DNA from: a virus
DNA: 39,253 nucleotides
Virus genome (UHGV): UHGV-1369056
Strand: one strand, 5' to 3'
Shown in pieces: positions 1 to 39,253 of this stretch (position 1 is the stretch's first letter; each line of letters begins with the position of its first letter). The notes below the pieces were generated by a model. That model ran no database searches. It was given only the letters and a program-made list of their open reading frames with translations, and was not told the DNA's origin. Both the position numbers and the translations under genes were made by a program.

Positions 1-78
1 ACAACCATAAGTCACAACCATAAGTCACAACCATAAGTCACAACCATAAGTCACAACCATAAGTCACAACCATAAGAC
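1..78. repeat. Tandem array of a 13-bp unit ACAACCATAAGTC (5 perfect copies plus 1 imperfect copy); the array continues across the window boundary
   Basis: Direct reading: units at 1-13, 14-26, 27-39, 40-52, 53-65, variant acaaccataagac at 66-78. The last 13 nt of the window (ataaccataagtc) are a further near-copy. Confidence 0.9.
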
Positions 79-722
79 ACCAACGCCTACAGTCAAAGGC
101 CTACAGTTAATCGACACACAGCTATAGACTTAAGGTCAAAGACATGTTAGTCAAAGACTATATCCTCTTACACCATGGGGCCGACGATAGCTTACTCAAT
201 ATTATTTCAAATTACCTATTGACTACAGGTCTAGACTATGGCTTAATAGATTCCGTCAACACGACACGGCAACAACCGATAGTGAAGACGCCGGGTCATC
301 CCGGTTAAGTAGACAGCCTGATAAGTCATACGAACAACAGGCAGATGACAGAAGCAGTTGACAAGCTGTACCGACTTAAAGTAGTATGTACCACGTAGCA
401 AGATGGCGTAGGGATAGGAACCGAGAAACCTGCCCGAGACCAGCCAAGGATAAGGCACCAGCTGTGAGTCGAATTCGGTCACTCACCGCATAAAAGAATA
501 ACAGGTTGACAGCCTCCTTTAAAAGCTGTAAGCTGTACCACATCGAAACGACAGTGAGTCCCAACACTGAAACGGGATAGCACGGCGACGACAGCCAACG
601 CGAATGCTCTTTAACAATCTGGATAAACTCTTAATGTGCGCCGATAGCGACTAACTACAGGGTCTTTGAGTCTACATCTGAAGGCCTTGACTGATAGTCA
701 CTAACTTAAATAGGGTAACATT

Positions 723-899
723 ATGAAAATCATAGCGATGAACGAAGAACTGGGCGTAATCTGGTATACGGCTAACGACTATAAGTATCGCACTAAGCAT
801 GTGATAATCTACGGATTGTCTAAGACTGAGTGGGATAGCCGTGAGCAAGCGCAGGACGCGTTCAATAAGTGCCTGAACCATGCGTTCAATTGCCAGTGA
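723..899 (+). CDS. Hypothetical small early protein (58 aa, MKIIAMNEELGVIWYTANDYKYRT...)
   Basis: ATG at 723, TGA at 897-899, read by hand (below the 60-aa cutoff of the ORF track). Same strand as all other genes; preceded by a copy of the repeated early element tgatagtcactaac. Weak SD. Confidence 0.35.
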   Translation: MKIIAMNEELGVIWYTANDYKYRTKHVIIYGLSKTEWDSREQAQDAFNKCLNHAFNCQ

Positions 900-980
900 T
901 TAACTACAGGTCGTTAGACTCATAGCGGCCTGATTGATAGTCACTAACATACACACAATTAACTTTGAGAGGATATAAAT

Positions 981-1325
981 ATGGAACGTAACGCTAACGC
1001 ATACTATGACCTGCTGGCTGCAACCGTTGAGCTGTTCAATGAGCGTATTCAGTACGACGAAATAGCTGAAGGCGATGATTATTACGATGCGCTGCATGAA
1101 GTCGTAGACTATATGGTTCCGCACTATTACCACGAGATTTTCACGGTAATGGCTGCTGATGGTATAGACCACGAGTTTGAGGACTCTGGGCTGATGCCTG
1201 AAACCAAGGATGTAACGCGTATACTGCAAGCCCGCATCTATGAGGCGCTTTATAACGACGTGTCTAATAGCTCGGATGTGGTCTGGTTTGAGGATGAAGA
1301 GGCAGACGAGGAGGATTGCGAGTGA
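981..1325 (+). CDS. ocr: Ocr-like anti-restriction protein (T7 gp0.3 homologue), DNA mimic
   Basis: 114-aa acidic protein; the segment VPHYYHEIFTVMAADGIDHEFEDSGLMPETKDVTRILQARIYE closely matches T7 Ocr as recalled (VPHYY..IF.VMA.EGID.EFEDSGLMPDTKDV.RILQARIYE); acidic C-terminus; SD gagagg upstream. Confidence 0.9.
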   Translation: MERNANAYYDLLAATVELFNERIQYDEIAEGDDYYDALHEVVDYMVPHYYHEIFTVMAADGIDHEFEDSGLMPETKDVTRILQARIYEALYNDVSNSSDVVWFEDEEADEEDCE

Positions 1326-1482
1326 TAGTGACTTATGGTCTCTGCCAGCACCACGTCACCAACGCCCGGCTTATGGTCAAGACCGGGCAGTTAAACCACG
1401 ATGCGACTATGCGCCACCTGAAAGCGGTCTATGAGGGCCGCAAGCGTATACACGACAGCTTACACGATGAGGATAACCAACA

Positions 1483-1683
1483 ATGACACGCAACGATATA
1501 ATTGATAGACTTAAGTCCGTATATCTGGTAGGTGATGGGCCAATACGCATAACTGCCAAGAGCTATGAAGGCAACATACTAGCACCTGAGGGCACAGCAT
1601 ATCGGATATCATTTACCGACCTTATCACCTCCAAGCGTAGGACCGTTACGCTGTGGCCTAACACTGTAGGATTCCAAGGGTAA
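1483..1683 (+). CDS. Hypothetical early protein (66 aa)
   Basis: ORF in the early region, + strand, SD-like gaggat upstream; no recognisable motif. Confidence 0.4.
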   Translation: MTRNDIIDRLKSVYLVGDGPIRITAKSYEGNILAPEGTAYRISFTDLITSKRRTVTLWPNTVGFQG

Positions 1684-1689
1684 GCAGAA

Positions 1690-1815
1690 ATGTACCAGAT
1701 AACTTATAGCAGTGAACAGGCGTTCTACGATGGGTGCTACGAGATGATGAAGCGCGGGGCTTGCTACGTGGCTAATCACCATAGCTTGACCATAACGCTG
1801 ACAGGTGGATACTGA
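1690..1815 (+). CDS. Hypothetical small early protein (41 aa, MYQITYSSEQAFYDGCYEMMKRGACYVANHH...)
   Basis: Hand-read ORF, ATG 1690 to TGA 1813-1815; below the ORF-track cutoff; Cys/His-containing; weak SD. Confidence 0.25.
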   Translation: MYQITYSSEQAFYDGCYEMMKRGACYVANHHSLTITLTGGY

Positions 1816-1971
1816 GTGATAAACGAGAGGTCATCGACTGATAGGTGGCCTCAAAGATTATCACTTACATTGATAGGGGTTAACTATGAGTGTGGGATAT
1901 TTGGTATGCCTAGCGCCAGTTATCTGGATGATAGGTTATGGGATATACGATTGTATTAAACGGAAATCACT

Positions 1972-2169
1972 ATGAGTATCGAACTATTGATAGCCATAGG
2001 CTATGGACTTATCGCCTACATGCTGATGAGAGACATCAACAAGGCACGTAAAGTCTATAAATTCAACTATGCACGTCTGGGCCGCTGGACTGTACGCCAA
2101 CCTAATGGGCGATTCGCGCGTAACTTAGCGAACGTCTGGGATATAGCAACTCTTGGGAGCAAACTGTAA
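1972..2169 (+). CDS. Hypothetical early protein (65 aa) with hydrophobic N-terminus (possible membrane anchor)
   Basis: ORF on + strand; N-terminal LLIAIGYGLIAYML hydrophobic stretch; stop overlaps the next ORF start (TAATG). Confidence 0.4.
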   Translation: MSIELLIAIGYGLIAYMLMRDINKARKVYKFNYARLGRWTVRQPNGRFARNLANVWDIATLGSKL

Positions 2170-2495
2170 TGAACAAGTCATACGGGATTAATTTGGTACG
2201 CTCTATGGACGCAGAAATGAACATGTTAAGCCTACTGGCTACCGGGTATCGTCACGGAACGTCAAGTCACACCGCACGTCAACAGCAGGAGCGGGACCGT
2301 GTACTACAGGCACGACTCAGGGCAGAGGGCCATAAGTCCGAGCTGATGTGTCTGGCGTATGGTGGACGACCAATCACCGACGATGGTAAACTTCTGGTCT
2401 CAGGCTGGAAGGCGATAGACCAACGGTCAACCATCAAGCACACGACTCACGGTGACTTCAGTCATCTTCACGCTAACCCTCTGATATGCAAGTAA
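2169..2495 (+). CDS. Hypothetical early protein (108 aa), in the position T7 gene 0.7 occupies but not a protein kinase
   Basis: ORF directly upstream of the RNA polymerase gene; no kinase motifs and far too short for a gp0.7 homologue. Confidence 0.45.
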   Translation: MNKSYGINLVRSMDAEMNMLSLLATGYRHGTSSHTARQQQERDRVLQARLRAEGHKSELMCLAYGGRPITDDGKLLVSGWKAIDQRSTIKHTTHGDFSHLHANPLICK

Positions 2496-2500
2496 TTATG

Positions 2501-2523
2501 ACTTAACTATCACTATAGGACTC
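2501..2523 (+). promoter_or_regulatory. Phage RNAP promoter (-17..+6), ACTTAACTATCACTATAGGACTC
   Basis: Matches the 11-copy consensus cTAAACTATCACTATAGG; the CACTATAG core is identical to the T7 class III core; sits upstream of gene 1. Confidence 0.75.
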
Positions 2524-2592
2524 AAGGTCTAAGACTCCAAGTGAAAGACCAAAGAGACTTTAAGTGAAAGACTAATAACAAGGACTTTAAGT

Positions 2593-5274
2593 ATGAGCGT
2601 CATCTCTATTGAAAAACACGACTTCTCTGATGTGTCGAACGCCATTGAGCCGTTTAACCTGCTGGCTGACCACTACGGGCAAGACCTTGCAGTCAAACAG
2701 CTTCAGCTTGAGCACGAGGCATACACTGAAGGCGAGCGACGTTTCATCAAGAACCTTGAGCGCCAGACTGAGCGCGGGGAACTGGCAGACAATCAGGTCG
2801 CCAAGCCTTTGATGCAGACTCTGGTCCCTAAGATTGCGCAAGCCGTAAGGGAGTGGCATGAAGGGCCAGACGGGAAGCTGTCAACCTCTCGTCCTAGCGT
2901 GGCGTTCACCATGTTGAGCACTGAAGAGAAGGCCGTCAAGGACCGCTCTCTGCGCATCTCATGTGAGTCTGCTGCGGTTATCATACTGAAGGTCATACTC
3001 TCCAAGCTGGTCAAGCCTGAAGGGATACCGATTACACCGATGGCCTCCGCGATAGGTCGCACACTTGAGGACGAAATCCGCTTCGGCCGCATCCGTGACA
3101 AGGAGAAAGAGCACTTCAAGAAGGCGATAGCTGATAACCTGAATAAGCGGGCCGGGGCGTCCTACAAGAAAGCCTACATGCAAGCGGTCGAGGCATCCAT
3201 GCTGGAGCAAGGCCAACTGGAAGATGCGTGGGGGACTTGGAGTCCTACAGAGGCTGTCCACGTTGGCATCAAGATGCTTGAGATTGTCATCCAGTCAACA
3301 CAACTGGTCGAGCTTAAGCGGTACGGTGCTGGCAATGCAGCGGCTGACGTAGAGATGGTCCACCTGTCAGACTGCTGGGTCAAGAAGATGGCACAACGAG
3401 GATTCAGCCTTGCGGGTATCGCTCCAGTCTACCAGCCTTGCGTCGTTCCACCTAAGCCGTGGACTGGTGTCGTAGGCGGTGGGTACTGGGCCAAAGGTCG
3501 CAGACCGCTGCCCCTGATTCGCTTAGGGTCTAAGTCAGCGGTGGCACGTTATGAAGACGTATACATGCCTGAAGTCTATGACGCTGTGAATATCATCCAG
3601 AATACACCTTGGAAAGTGAACAAGAAGGTGCTGGACGTGGTGAACATGGTCGAGAAGTTGAACAACACACCTATTGATGACATCCCTCAGATGGAGCCAC
3701 TGAAGCCTGAAGACTATGCGGGTGAGACTGAAGAGGAACTCAAGGCATGGAAGAAGGCTGCTGCTGGTATCTACCGCCGAGAGAAGGCCCGGCAGTCACG
3801 TAGATTGTCACTGAGCTTTATCGTTAACCAAGCGAACAAGTTCTCTCAGTTCAAGGCCATCTGGTTTCCGTACAACATGGACTGGCGCGGTCGCGTCTAC
3901 GCTGTGCCGATGTTCAACCCTCAGGGTAACGACATGCAAAAGGGTCTCCTGACTCTGGCAGTCGGTAAGCCTATTGGTGCTGATGGTTTCAAATGGCTGA
4001 AGGTCCACGGTGCAAACTGTGCGGGTATTGATAAAGTAACCTTCGAGGAGCGCATCAAGTGGGTGGAAGATAACCACGACAACATCATGGCTACCGCTAA
4101 GGCACCGATGGACAGCATTGAGTGGTGGGGTAAGTTAGACTCTCCGTTCTGCTTCCTAGCGTTCTGCTTCGAGTATGCTGGCGTAATGCACCACGGTTTG
4201 TCTTACTCCTGCTCGCTGCCGATAGCTTTCGATGGGTCCTGCTCTGGGATTCAGCACTTCAGCGCGATGCTTCGTGACCACATCGGTGGGCATGCAGTAA
4301 ACCTAACGCCATCCGGTAAGGTCCAAGACATCTATCGCATTGTGTCTGACCGCATTGAGGAGGAACTCAAAGTCCTGCTGGTTAACGGTACGGACAACGA
4401 GATGGCAACTCACGAGGACAAGAAAACTGGTGAGATTACCGAGCGTCTCAAGCTGGGGACACGAGAGCTGGCCCGTCAGTGGCTGACCTACGGTATGTCA
4501 CGCAAGGTCACTAAGCGTTCGGTCATGACTCTGGCCTACGGGTCGAAAGAGTACGGCTTCGCAGACCAAGTATACGAGGACATCGTGATGCCAGCGATTG
4601 ACTCAGGGTCTGGCGCTATGTTCACTGAACCAAGCCAAGCGTCTCGCTTCATGGCTAAGATGATTTGGGAAGCTGTGAGTGTGACAGTAGTTGCTGCGGT
4701 TGACGCGATGAAGTGGCTTCAAGGTGCTGCCAAGCTGCTGGCTGCTGAGGTGAAGGACAAGAAGACTGGAGAAATCCTGAAGCCTTGTCTTCCGGTACAC
4801 TGGGTCACACCTGATGGGTTCCCGGTATGGCAGGAATACCGCAAGAAGGATACCACTCGTCTGAACCTGATGTTCTTAGGGTCATTCAACCTTCAGCCTA
4901 CAGTCAACAAAGGCACGAAGAAAGAGCTGGACAAGCACAAGCAGGAGTCAGGCATTAGCCCGAACTTCGTCCACTCACAAGATGGTAGCCACCTCCGAAA
5001 GACTGTAGTCCACACTCACCGCAAGTATGGCGTGATGTCATTCGCAGTGATTCACGATAGCTTCGGGACCATCCCGGCTGACGCTGAGTATCTGTTCCGT
5101 GGCGTCCGTGAGACGATGGTAGAGACTTACCGCGACAACGATGTGCTGCTTGACTTCTACGAGCAGTTTGAATACCAGCTTCACGAGAGCCAGCGCGACA
5201 AGTTGCCTGAGCTTCCGAAGAAAGGTAAACTGAATATCGAGGACATCTTGTCTTCAGACTTTGCATTCGCTTAA
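2593..5274 (+). CDS. 1: Single-subunit DNA-directed RNA polymerase (T7 gene 1 homologue)
   Basis: 893 aa; C-terminus ...HSQDGSHLRK...IHDSFGTIPADA...FAFA and many internal blocks are characteristic of T7-type RNAP; SD upstream. Confidence 0.98.
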   Translation: MSVISIEKHDFSDVSNAIEPFNLLADHYGQDLAVKQLQLEHEAYTEGERRFIKNLERQTERGELADNQVAKPLMQTLVPKIAQAVREWHEGPDGKLSTSRPSVAFTMLSTEEKAVKDRSLRISCESAAVIILKVILSKLVKPEGIPITPMASAIGRTLEDEIRFGRIRDKEKEHFKKAIADNLNKRAGASYKKAYMQAVEASMLEQGQLEDAWGTWSPTEAVHVGIKMLEIVIQSTQLVELKRYGAGNAAADVEMVHLSDCWVKKMAQRGFSLAGIAPVYQPCVVPPKPWTGVVGGGYWAKGRRPLPLIRLGSKSAVARYEDVYMPEVYDAVNIIQNTPWKVNKKVLDVVNMVEKLNNTPIDDIPQMEPLKPEDYAGETEEELKAWKKAAAGIYRREKARQSRRLSLSFIVNQANKFSQFKAIWFPYNMDWRGRVYAVPMFNPQGNDMQKGLLTLAVGKPIGADGFKWLKVHGANCAGIDKVTFEERIKWVEDNHDNIMATAKAPMDSIEWWGKLDSPFCFLAFCFEYAGVMHHGLSYSCSLPIAFDGSCSGIQHFSAMLRDHIGGHAVNLTPSGKVQDIYRIVSDRIEEELKVLLVNGTDNEMATHEDKKTGEITERLKLGTRELARQWLTYGMSRKVTKRSVMTLAYGSKEYGFADQVYEDIVMPAIDSGSGAMFTEPSQASRFMAKMIWEAVSVTVVAAVDAMKWLQGAAKLLAAEVKDKKTGEILKPCLPVHWVTPDGFPVWQEYRKKDTTRLNLMFLGSFNLQPTVNKGTKKELDKHKQESGISPNFVHSQDGSHLRKTVVHTHRKYGVMSFAVIHDSFGTIPADAEYLFRGVRETMVETYRDNDVLLDFYEQFEYQLHESQRDKLPELPKKGKLNIEDILSSDFAFA

Positions 5275-5746: not shown

Positions 5747-5820
5747 CACACCTACAGTTACTGGCCTTGTGGCTGGGAGCACTAGCAGTATTCACTTTAA
5801 TCCAACGCAGAAGAGGTTGA

Positions 5821-5843
5821 CCTAAACTATCACTATAGGATTA
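5821..5843 (+). promoter_or_regulatory. Phage RNAP promoter, CCTAAACTATCACTATAGGATTA
   Basis: Consensus match; upstream of gene 1.1 (as T7 phi1.1). Confidence 0.8.
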
Positions 5844-5890
5844 GACTCAAGGTCATGACTTAAAGTCGTGGCCTTCATGATTAACCCTAT
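5834..5890 (+). promoter_or_regulatory. RNase III-like processing stem-loop (copy A of 3)
   Basis: Upper stem aaggtcatgac/gtcgtggcctt (5849-5859 / 5865-5875, including G-U pairs) with loop ttaaa, flanked by lower stem tatagg/cctata. Shares the motif agactcaaggtcat...gtggcctt with copies at 12895 and 35630, with compensatory changes. Confidence 0.55.
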
Positions 5891-5914
5891 AACCTAAACA
5901 ACTGGAGCTACAAC

Positions 5915-12730: not shown

Positions 12731-12895
12731 ATGCTAAGAAAACTTAAAGCTCGCTACCATCGGTTCATGTACAAATGGTGGAGCGACGCAGCAACCTGCC
12801 TGTCCAACATTCTGGGAGACCAGAGGTTCGACTCTAAGGCATGGAAGAAAGCTAACCGTAAGTTTATGTATCACTTCTTGCGTACAGACTTATAG
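12731..12895 (+). CDS. Hypothetical small basic protein (54 aa)
   Basis: ATG 12731 with SD aggaga, in frame with track ORF 12656..12895; position corresponds to the T7 4.x small genes. Confidence 0.4.
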   Translation: MLRKLKARYHRFMYKWWSDAATCLSNILGDQRFDSKAWKKANRKFMYHFLRTDL

Positions 12896-12941
12896 GTCTA
12901 AACTCAAGGTCATTCACATAGAGTGGCCTTTATGATTAGAC
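12895..12941 (+). promoter_or_regulatory. RNase III-like processing stem-loop (copy B of 3)
   Basis: Lower stem gtctaa/ttagac, upper stem aaggtcatt/agtggcctt, loop cacatag; same architecture as copies A and C; located just upstream of the DNA polymerase gene, like T7 R4.7. Confidence 0.55.
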
Positions 12942-12958
12942 TAAACGGAGGATTAACC

Positions 12959-35369: not shown

Positions 35370-35629
35370 CGCAGATGGACTTAGAGAAGTTCCTCTTAAT
35401 GCTAGATACTGAACGTGCTCGACTCATGCTGCAAGACTTGCGGGATGACACTAAGCGTTCACCTCAGCTCTACAACGCCATTGAGAAGCTGCTTGCTCGT
35501 CACAACTTTGTGTTAAGCAAGGTGTCTGTTGACGAGAAGACGCTGGCTGATATGGAGGCCCTGAACGCAGAGTACGATAAGGTGCTTTCAGCGACTGAGG
35601 ATAATGACACAGGGTATGGTGTTCAATAA
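35366..35629 (+). CDS. 18: Terminase small subunit (gp18 homologue)
   Basis: 87 aa; FLLMLDTERARLMLQDL.D..KRSPQLYNAIEKLLARHNF matches T7 gp18 (FLEMLDTAMAQRMLADL.D.ERRSPQLYNAINKLLDRHKF). Confidence 0.88.
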   Translation: MTQMDLEKFLLMLDTERARLMLQDLRDDTKRSPQLYNAIEKLLARHNFVLSKVSVDEKTLADMEALNAEYDKVLSATEDNDTGYGVQ

Positions 35630-35679
35630 GTGTTAGACTCAAGGTCATTACTATATGTAGTGGCCTTTATGGTTAACAC
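35630..35679 (+). promoter_or_regulatory. RNase III-like processing stem-loop (copy C of 3)
   Basis: Lower stem gtgtta/taacac, upper stem aaggtcattac/gtagtggcctt, loop tatat; between genes 18 and 18.5, as T7 R18.5. Confidence 0.55.
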
Positions 35680-35730
35680 TAACTAGTGGAGGCGACTCTA
35701 CGTGAAATCTGATAAACCGGGAGGGCAACT

Positions 35731-39005: not shown

Positions 39006-39253
39006 TGGCTCCTTAAGAGGGACGATGAGTTTTGGACCAAAAGTTTGAGACCACATCTCACAGTTCAAGAACCTCAAGTCTCCCCATAGGCCCTCTTTAA
39101 GTCCAGACCAAGGCCCTACCCCAGTCTATCATAAGGTTGGACCGGCTGTAAATACCTCAAGTCAACGATAGGTCATGACTATCGGTGGTGGTGGAGACGA
39201 TAGGTAGGGACTATTGGTCTGCCTCTGAGTCTCTATCTGTATAACCATAAGTC

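Follow-up and report, generated by a model that had tools for sequence, protein, structure and literature searches.

The polycistronic RNAs of bacteriophage T7 are cut at specific RNase III sites (PMC6938266), and the T7 site R1.1, which has a 4/5-nt asymmetric internal loop, undergoes one primary cut in vivo (PMC6121014). RNase III substrates of Escherichia coli extend over about two helical turns, and inhibitory base pairs are absent from their proximal and distal boxes; internal loops restrict the enzyme to one phosphodiester, and the 3′ hairpin left over after cleavage protects the RNA from 3′-5′ exonucleases (PMC1540722).

We analysed the early region of the virus genome UHGV-1369056 (39,253 nt; “the window” denotes this whole stretch of DNA). 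It is a Kayfunavirus genome (K1F-like, T7 group), with the first 2.5 kb about 90-93% identical to Kayfunavirus relatives, and it starts directly past the terminal repeat; the annotated terminal repeat of EcoDS1 (1-178) ends with the closing sequence of the window. A gene for a single-subunit RNA polymerase of 893 aa is located at 2593-5274, and a family of 22-nt repeats containing CTAAACTATCACTATAGG, with 11 copies in the window and none left of 2498, evidently represents the promoter of this phage polymerase.

An initial annotation, made from the sequence of the window, had described three copies of one early-region element upstream of the first genes. The motifs themselves are where it had placed them, within 2 nt: TTGACTACAGG at 219-229 (copy 1), CTAACTACAGGG at 651-662 (copy 2) and TTAACTACAGG at 900-910 (copy 3, given there as starting at 898). 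The grouping did not hold, as there are really two copies of one hairpin, copies 2 and 3, and one look-alike of a different kind, copy 1. The interval is a T7-group early control region with two unrelated kinds of signal, host promoters and RNase III hairpins, and the joint explanation in which copy 1 is the leftmost host RNA polymerase promoter and copies 2 and 3 are RNase III processing hairpins is, in our estimation, very probable. The supposed three-copy element resolves into a promoter and an RNA-processing site, both of known kinds, and the T7 paradigm is confirmed here. The three motif copies are not promoters for the phage polymerase, as the CTAAACTATCACTATAGG consensus bears no likeness to them and has 0 copies in 1-2497. 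The features discussed below are as follows:

219-255, + strand: copy 1, putative A1-type sigma-70 early promoter (alignment with T7/T3 A1, conservation, EcoDS1 annotation)
358-395 (hexamers 358-387), + strand: A2-type sigma-70 early promoter, TTGACA-18-TAGTAT (PWM, consensus, EcoDS1 homolog)
506-542 (hexamers 506-534), + strand: A3-type sigma-70 early promoter, TTGACA-17-TAAGCT (PWM score 13.85)
606-616, + strand: boxA-like sequence GCTCTTTAACA in the early leader, a perfect and unique match to GYTCTTTAANA
643-707, + strand: copy 2, putative RNase III processing site and R0.3 ortholog (fold, covariation, synteny, model score 62 bits)
723-899, + strand: small early gene of 58 aa between copies 2 and 3 (full-length match to phrog_20418, E = 1.7e-36)
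892-950, + strand: copy 3, second putative RNase III processing site, R0.5/R4.7-like lower-stem type (fold, model score 69.7 bits)
981-1325, + strand: gene 0.3, ocr-like anti-restriction gene behind copy 3 (phrog_2568, E = 5.5e-53)
1812-1870, + strand: third early-region hairpin (45.9 bits, E = 2.7e-8)
5834-5893, + strand: R1.1-type hairpin (39 bits, E = 1.1e-6; fold z = -4.76)
12892-12947, + strand: R4.7-type hairpin, intercistronic (46.5 bits, E = 2e-8)
35626-35685, + strand: R18.5-type hairpin, intercistronic (60.7 bits, E = 1.1e-11)

In a promoter alignment anchored on the conserved AAGTAGACAGCCTGATAAGTC, the TTGACT of copy 1 (219-224), correctly singled out in the initial annotation as resembling a -35 hexamer, falls column for column on the -35 of the mapped T7 A1 promoter (start 498) and of T3 A1, for which both -35 and -10 are annotated. 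Copy 1 also shares with A1 of both phages an AT-rich upstream stretch and the initial transcribed sequence, CGTCAAC..GACA(C/A)CGG. A 17-nt spacer, which ends with a TG at 239-240 in the position of an extended -10 element (-15/-14), separates TTGACT from the -10 hexamer CTTAAT at 242-247, and transcription is predicted to start near G255. All 18 Kayfunavirus-type relatives have TTGAC, TGG and TAATAG at this site, whereas the spacer is less conserved over its first 14 positions, with a mean identity of 0.84. In EcoDS1, the homologous site (469-505) carries the annotation of a host RNAP promoter, although that annotation may itself be a prediction. On these grounds copy 1 appears to be the homolog of T7/T3 A1, the leftmost host RNA polymerase early promoter.

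It was stated in the initial annotation that no convincing -35/-10 pair could be fitted to any copy. For copy 1 such a pair can be written (TTGACT-N17-CTTAAT plus the extended TG), yet its PWM score of 10.2 is below 11.1, the median best score of shuffled sequence, so that promoter status rests on homology, the conservation pattern and the EcoDS1 annotation. The -10 hexamer matches TATAAT at 4/6 positions and is without the A at -11, which is highly conserved in sigma-70 -10 elements; with CTTAAT and an upstream TG in place of GATACT (T7 A1) or TATTAT (T3 A1), copy 1 is predicted to be the weaker promoter. These features would also be expected if copy 1 were an inactive or very weak A1 relic, with early transcription coming from the sites at 358 and 506 only, and promoter number does vary in K1F-type phages, K1F itself having one strong downstream TTGACA promoter. 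We consider a relic unlikely, though it deserves more weight than any other alternative discussed here: the invariance of TTGAC, the extended TG and TAAT extends to a divergent lineage with a different spacer, the AT-rich stretch upstream is in place, the site carries a host promoter annotation in EcoDS1, and in K1F it is the second-best site by PWM. An A1-type promoter at copy 1 remains the preferred reading.

The PWM was a simple one, with the hexamer frequencies of the classical compilations, and in both T7 and T3 its three highest-ranking sites are the annotated A3, A2 and A1. When the initial annotation’s proposed check with a sigma-70 matrix was carried out, the top matches in the window were 358-387 and 506-534, while none of the three motif copies was among them and copy 1 did not rise above chance; the strong early promoters had been missed because they are located between the copies. 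The 358 site has the best consensus match (10/12) and the top PWM score (14.26), it shares the conserved upstream flank AAGTAGACAGCCTGATAAGTC with T7 and T3, and its homolog in EcoDS1 is the promoter feature at 609-647; the predicted start is G395. At the 506 site, for which a start at A542 is predicted, the downstream sequence gtaccacAtcgaaacgacagtgag matches gtaccacAtgaaacgacagtgag of T7 A3. The EcoDS1 record lists three host RNAP promoters, which are the homologs of copy 1 and of the 358 and 506 sites, and all of them lie 5′ of the hairpin.

Had copies 2 and 3 been host sigma-70 promoters placed before each early gene, the PWM matches at 687-716 (TTGACT-18-TAGGGT, 11.4) and 890-920 (TTGCCA-19-TAGACT, 10.7) would be their hexamers. 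Both scores are at or below the shuffle median, the base that completes the copy 2 -35 is specific to the window, its relatives reading CTGACT rather than TTGACT, and an mRNA starting from 716 would have no leader ahead of the ATG at 723. Conservation is seen in the base pairing, with compensatory changes, and not in the hexamers, and no annotated EcoDS1 host promoter lies downstream of the hairpin; a promoter function for these two copies is therefore highly improbable. Thus, of the two functions that the initial annotation had weighed for all three copies, that of A1-A3-type host promoters suits copy 1 and fails for copies 2 and 3, where the promoter-like bases are not conserved, and that of R0.3-type processing sites suits copies 2 and 3 (by fold, covariation and model) and fails for copy 1, which has no model match.

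Between the last promoter and copy 2, the early leader contains the match to the boxA consensus GYTCTTTAANA (PMC5725501), situated 39 nt 5′ of the copy 2 hairpin. A 17-mer, GCTCTTTAACAATCTGG, is identical in the window, T7, T3, K1F and EcoDS1, and in the window, K1F, T7 and T3 it is followed by AAACTCTTAATG, at a distance of 39-42 nt upstream of the hairpin. Being a boxA, GCTCTTTAACAATCTGG matched mainly contigs outside the T7 group in an IMG/VR scan, which left about 20 usable loci. The succession of boxA and RNase III hairpin on a transcript of the host polymerase is similar to that in the E. coli rrn leader, where boxA precedes the RNase III stem of 16S rRNA, although this is a resemblance only. 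Literature searches on RNase III sites of K1F, or on boxA in the T7 early region, yielded nothing specific.

Copies 2 and 3, each about 60 nt long, are hairpins paralogous to one another and belong to a direct-repeat family, D11. The 3′ motif that the initial annotation had seen in two of its copies, TGATAGTCACTAAC, is indeed present exactly twice, at 692-705 and 935-948. Each hairpin consists of an 8-bp lower stem, a 4/5-nt asymmetric internal loop with an isolated C:G pair (ACUA vs ACUGA or AUUGA), and a 10-bp upper stem, for a total of 8 + 1 + 10 base pairs. In copy 2, the lower stem is formed by 646-653/695-702 and the upper stem by 658-667/680-689, with the internal loop at 654-657 vs 690-694 and the terminal loop at 668-679; in copy 3, the corresponding stems are 895-902/938-945 and 907-916/923-932, with the loop at 917-922. 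Folding, which had been suggested as a check, gave R0.3-shaped hairpins in both cases. Copy 3 folds at -23.2 kcal/mol (z = -5.09, with 0/200 shuffles as good) and is also the best model match; the fold of copy 2 taken alone is marginal relative to shuffles (z = -1.16), so that its support comes from covariation and orthology. Both hairpins are kept in the MFE and centroid structures of a 405-nt context, and their dot-bracket representation is identical to that of T7 R0.3 and of the annotated R0.3, R0.5, R4.7 and R18.5 sites of T3. A third D11 copy, at 2567-2593, was rejected, as it has no covariance-model support and folds with z = -0.35.

Conservation of the pairing was assessed in an alignment of 26 sites from T7, T3, K1F, related IMG/VR genomes and the window. 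Base pairs are formed in 96.4% of the cells, as compared with 79.5% after shuffling and at most 46% when the partners are slid, and 12/19 pairs change on both sides; none of 500 shuffles reached any of these measures. In a larger alignment of 79 sites, 95.3% of cells are paired and 14/19 pairs are compensatory. In the IMG/VR scans, a gapped two-anchor pattern replaced TGATAGTCACTAAC, as the 120 loci matched by TGATAGTCACTAAC were almost all unrelated contigs hit by chance.

A covariance model of T7-group RNase III sites was built from the 26-site alignment. When applied to T3 (38 kb), it recovered 7/10 annotated sites, including R6.5, which was outside the training set, with no unannotated match; the sites that it misses, R1.3, R3.8 and R13, are structurally atypical. 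In T7 it finds three sites, at 851-905, 1426-1483 and 3099-3153. In the window, it yields six matches, all on the + strand and each between a stop codon and the next start codon, with the stop codon of the upstream gene often inside the 5′ arm of the hairpin. Copies 2 and 3 have E values of about 1e-12 to 1e-13, and the other four matches, at 1812-1870, 5834-5893, 12892-12947 and 35626-35685, make the family larger than initially counted. The 5′ arm of the 1812-1870 hairpin holds the stop of an ORF at 1690-1815, with the next ATG at 1886, and the 5834-5893 hairpin comes directly after a phage promoter at 5818-5839. The RNase III-site model gives 39-70 bits on the + strand vs at most 15 bits on the minus strand which, together with the frequent G-U pairs, indicates that it is the + strand RNA that is under constraint. 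The annotations of eight public records of relatives contain no RNase III sites, and Rfam covariance models gave no match at E<=1 in 1-3000.

Copy 1 does not belong to this hairpin family. With filters off and a threshold as lax as E<=10, the RNase III-site model still gives no match to it, and its fold is no better than that of shuffled sequence (-7.4 kcal/mol, z = -0.46). It shares only TT(G/A)ACTACAGGTC with the hairpin element, the 3′ half being absent, and the stretch in common with copy 3 amounts to 12/13 nt only. ACTACAGG occurs at the copy 1 site in just 4/18 relatives, the others reading ACTATAGG, ACTATGGG or ACAGTRGG, so that the shared C is missing in 14/18, while in the Kayfunavirus hairpins examined ACTACAGG is invariant and its C pairs with G; the resemblance between copy 1 and the hairpins is therefore incidental. 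If all three copies nevertheless constituted one regulatory element with a single common function, such as a binding site or a promoter module, this would account for the 12/13-nt identity (about 0.05 by chance, with 0.86 expected at <=2 mismatches) and for the six occurrences of ACTACAGG in the window vs 1.66 expected, two of which are real hairpins. It would leave unexplained the missing 3′ half, model match and significant fold of copy 1, as well as its separate T7/T3 homolog, A1, which is unlike R0.3, and we give such a unitary element hardly any credence.

The two hairpins can be compared with individual sites of T7 and T3. Copy 2, judged by position and sequence, is the ortholog of T7/T3 R0.3: it is preceded by the last A promoter and the boxA 17-mer and followed by the first early gene, and it shares the hairpin shape, the AACU-purine-rich 5′ loop strand and the U-GAUA..UCAC 3′ strand. 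It is unlike R0.3 in its upper stem, CAGGGUCUU...AAGGCCUUG, and its 12-nt loop, where T7 has a GCAA tetraloop; in its internal loop, ACUA/ACUGA vs ACUC/UUAUGA; and in preceding the 58-aa gene, the function of which is unassigned in phrog_20418, whereas R0.3 precedes gene 0.3. Copy 3 resembles T7 R0.5, T3 R0.5 and R4.7, and T7 R1.1, with which it shares a continuous 8-bp lower stem from AGUGAU, with the upstream stop codon, a 4/5-nt asymmetric internal loop and an upper stem of about 10 bp. It is located before gene 0.3, not after 0.4 or 4.5, and has no positional counterpart in T7 or T3.

All 26 aligned sites have a U directly before GAU in the 3′ loop strand. According to Dunn and Studier (1983), T7 R0.3 is reportedly cut at nt 890, which we take to be this invariant U. 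By analogy, cuts are predicted at U692^G693 in copy 2 and at U935^G936 in copy 3; these positions rest on alignment and on the reported T7 mapping, because the public T7 records consulted list promoters and no RNase III cut coordinates.

The three promoters, at copy 1, 358 and 506, would together drive one long early transcript directly after infection, in which copies 2 and 3 would act as RNA rather than DNA, as hairpins of about 20 bp with their asymmetric internal loop of 4/5 nt. Host RNase III would bind the hairpin and cut its 3′ strand only, the restriction to a single cut being due to the internal loop. The cut would free the downstream gene as its own mRNA beginning with 5′-GAUAGUCACUAAC, namely the 58-aa gene at 723 after copy 2 and ocr at 981 after copy 3, and the stem-loop left on the 3′ end of the upstream RNA would guard it against 3′ exonucleases. 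Processing may in this way influence both the stability and the translation of the early mRNAs.

It may be asked whether copies 2 and 3 could be structured RNAs that stay uncut, serving as an attenuator or terminator, as a switch that sequesters a ribosome-binding site, or as a place where RNase III binds without cleavage. Cleavage of these copies is a prediction only, variants with a bulge-helix-bulge bind RNase III yet resist cleavage (PMC1540722), and the 405-nt fold suggests pairing of leader positions 628-634 with the ribosome-binding region of ocr near 965-971. Both hairpins, however, are followed by CACUAAC and not by a U-tract, and 1-2600 contains 0 terminator-like sites of the type in which a GC-rich hairpin is joined to a U-tract. 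The start codons are outside the stems; the initial annotation gave the ORF starts, 723 and 981, correctly, although its distance of 15-30 nt from the end of the motif is in fact 17 and 32 nt. Finally, sites that are cut in T7 have the same architecture and the same invariant U-GAU in the 3′ strand of the loop. An uncut role is accordingly improbable, if marginally less so than a promoter role for the same copies, and we retain RNase III processing as the function of both hairpins.

The number of hairpins between boxA and ocr varies among relatives: there is one in SH3, EcoDS1, L168, L189 and L306, two in the window, K1F, L222 and L225, and three in L216. The gene content varies as well. The slot of the 58-aa gene is occupied by the same gene in L077 and L222 and by other genes in K1F, L216 and L225, with no gene there in SH3 or EcoDS1, and the gene behind the first hairpin is of at least seven kinds (the phrog_20418 58-aa gene, K1F gp0.2, genes of 92 and 67 aa, one beginning MKLIGKG.., a SAM-hydrolase-like gene, and ocr). 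Copy 3 is an extra site that probably arrived with an extra small gene inserted before ocr, and the stop codon of the 58-aa gene (TGA, 897-899) sits in its lower stem.

The hairpin subtype tracks the slot, whatever gene is behind it, in that the first hairpin is always of the long-loop subtype and any later one of the copy 3 subtype; in L225, the first hairpin is a hybrid with a copy 3-type lower arm and a copy 2-type upper stem. The variable number of hairpins and genes, the slot-bound subtypes and the L225 hybrid would fit recombination, with crossovers inside the conserved arms. That the RNase III hairpins serve also as portable joints for swapping early accessory genes is a tentative idea, which we hold to be somewhat short of an even chance; if true, each inserted early gene would bring along a ready-made processing and stabilising signal. 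A comparable case may be found in the promoter-stem-loop (PeSL) cassettes of T4-type phages, reportedly described by Arbiol et al. in 2010. These too are reported to be short conserved regulatory repeats between variable small early genes and possible recombination joints, although they are said to be units of promoter plus terminator in T4-type phages, whereas here the repeat is an RNA-processing hairpin in a different phage family.

The early control region of a Kayfunavirus can thereby be annotated with three host promoters, one boxA-like element in the leader and a set of six putative RNase III sites; this is useful for annotation and carries no wider significance beyond the T7 paradigm. 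The 58-aa gene at 723-899 is predicted to have its own stabilised early mRNA, which supports its status as a real gene, possibly one involved in host takeover. At almost its full length, the copy 3 hairpin is present in 110 phage records, most often in intergenic DNA that carries no annotation.

The early leader of this phage carries, at 606-622, a 17-mer (GCTCTTTAACAATCTGG) in which the BoxA consensus of gamma-proteobacteria, GYTCTTTAANA, is matched perfectly, the sole such match in the window. Between the boxA match and the downstream R0.3-type hairpin (copy 2, 643-707) the distance is 39 nt, in a layout that resembles the rrn leader, where an RNase III stem comes after boxA. T7, T3, K1F and EcoDS1 have exactly the same 17-mer as the window, and it is not specific to the T7 group, being present in many non-T7 viral contigs. 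A literature search for boxA in the T7 early leader yielded no paper making that link.

A second conserved leader segment, CUCUUAA (628-634), also upstream of copy 2, was paired in the minimum free energy fold of 596-1000 with UUGAGAG (~965-971), which overlaps GAGAGGA, the Shine-Dalgarno sequence of ocr. T7 has an analogous GUGCA/UGCAC pairing, which closes below R0.3 and adjoins the SD. On the predicted fold, the 628-634/~965-971 pairing could occlude the ocr ribosome-binding site, an occlusion that RNase III cleavage would relieve.

Among related phage genomes, the R0.3 hairpin occurs in both hybrid and expanded forms:

L225 4839-4903, hybrid hairpin, with a lower arm of the copy 3 type (the second predicted RNase III hairpin of the window) and an upper stem of the copy 2 type
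L007 786-872, L101 833-920, L189 714-801 and L033 5432-5519, expanded hairpins of 87-88 nt, whose apical loop carries a branched insertion

In copy 2 itself, positions 687-692 read TTGACT, as opposed to CTGACT in nearly all relatives, and this C-to-T change converts an upper-stem G-C pair into G-U. The resemblance of this hexamer to a -35 element is spurious, a product of the same change.

Further downstream, the interval immediately preceding gene 1, which codes for the phage RNA polymerase, contains the following feature:

2498-2519, phage-polymerase promoter, immediately upstream of gene 1 (interval 2498-2592)

The transcript predicted from it begins GGACUCAAGGUC.., a copy of the 5′ half of an RNase III site; no complete hairpin was found at 2498-2592 by the covariance model of T7-group RNase III sites. 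Unlike T7 and T3, which have a true R1 site at the matching position, the window phage appears to lack an R1 site before gene 1. The ORFs between ocr and gene 1 (1325-2593) are all small (phrog_16587, 33188, 2385 and 7066) and include no gene 0.7-type protein kinase; T7's kinase-dependent RNase III stimulation, as described in PMC4858673, may therefore not apply to this phage.

At the extreme start of the window, a 13-nt unit, ACAACCATAAGTC, is present in 5-6 tandem copies (1-78), followed by CCTACAGT-type repeats at 86-110. Since the last bases (39236-39253, ..TATAACCATAAGTC) are identical to the closing bases of the terminal repeat and concatemer junction of EcoDS1, the given sequence begins just past the left terminal repeat.
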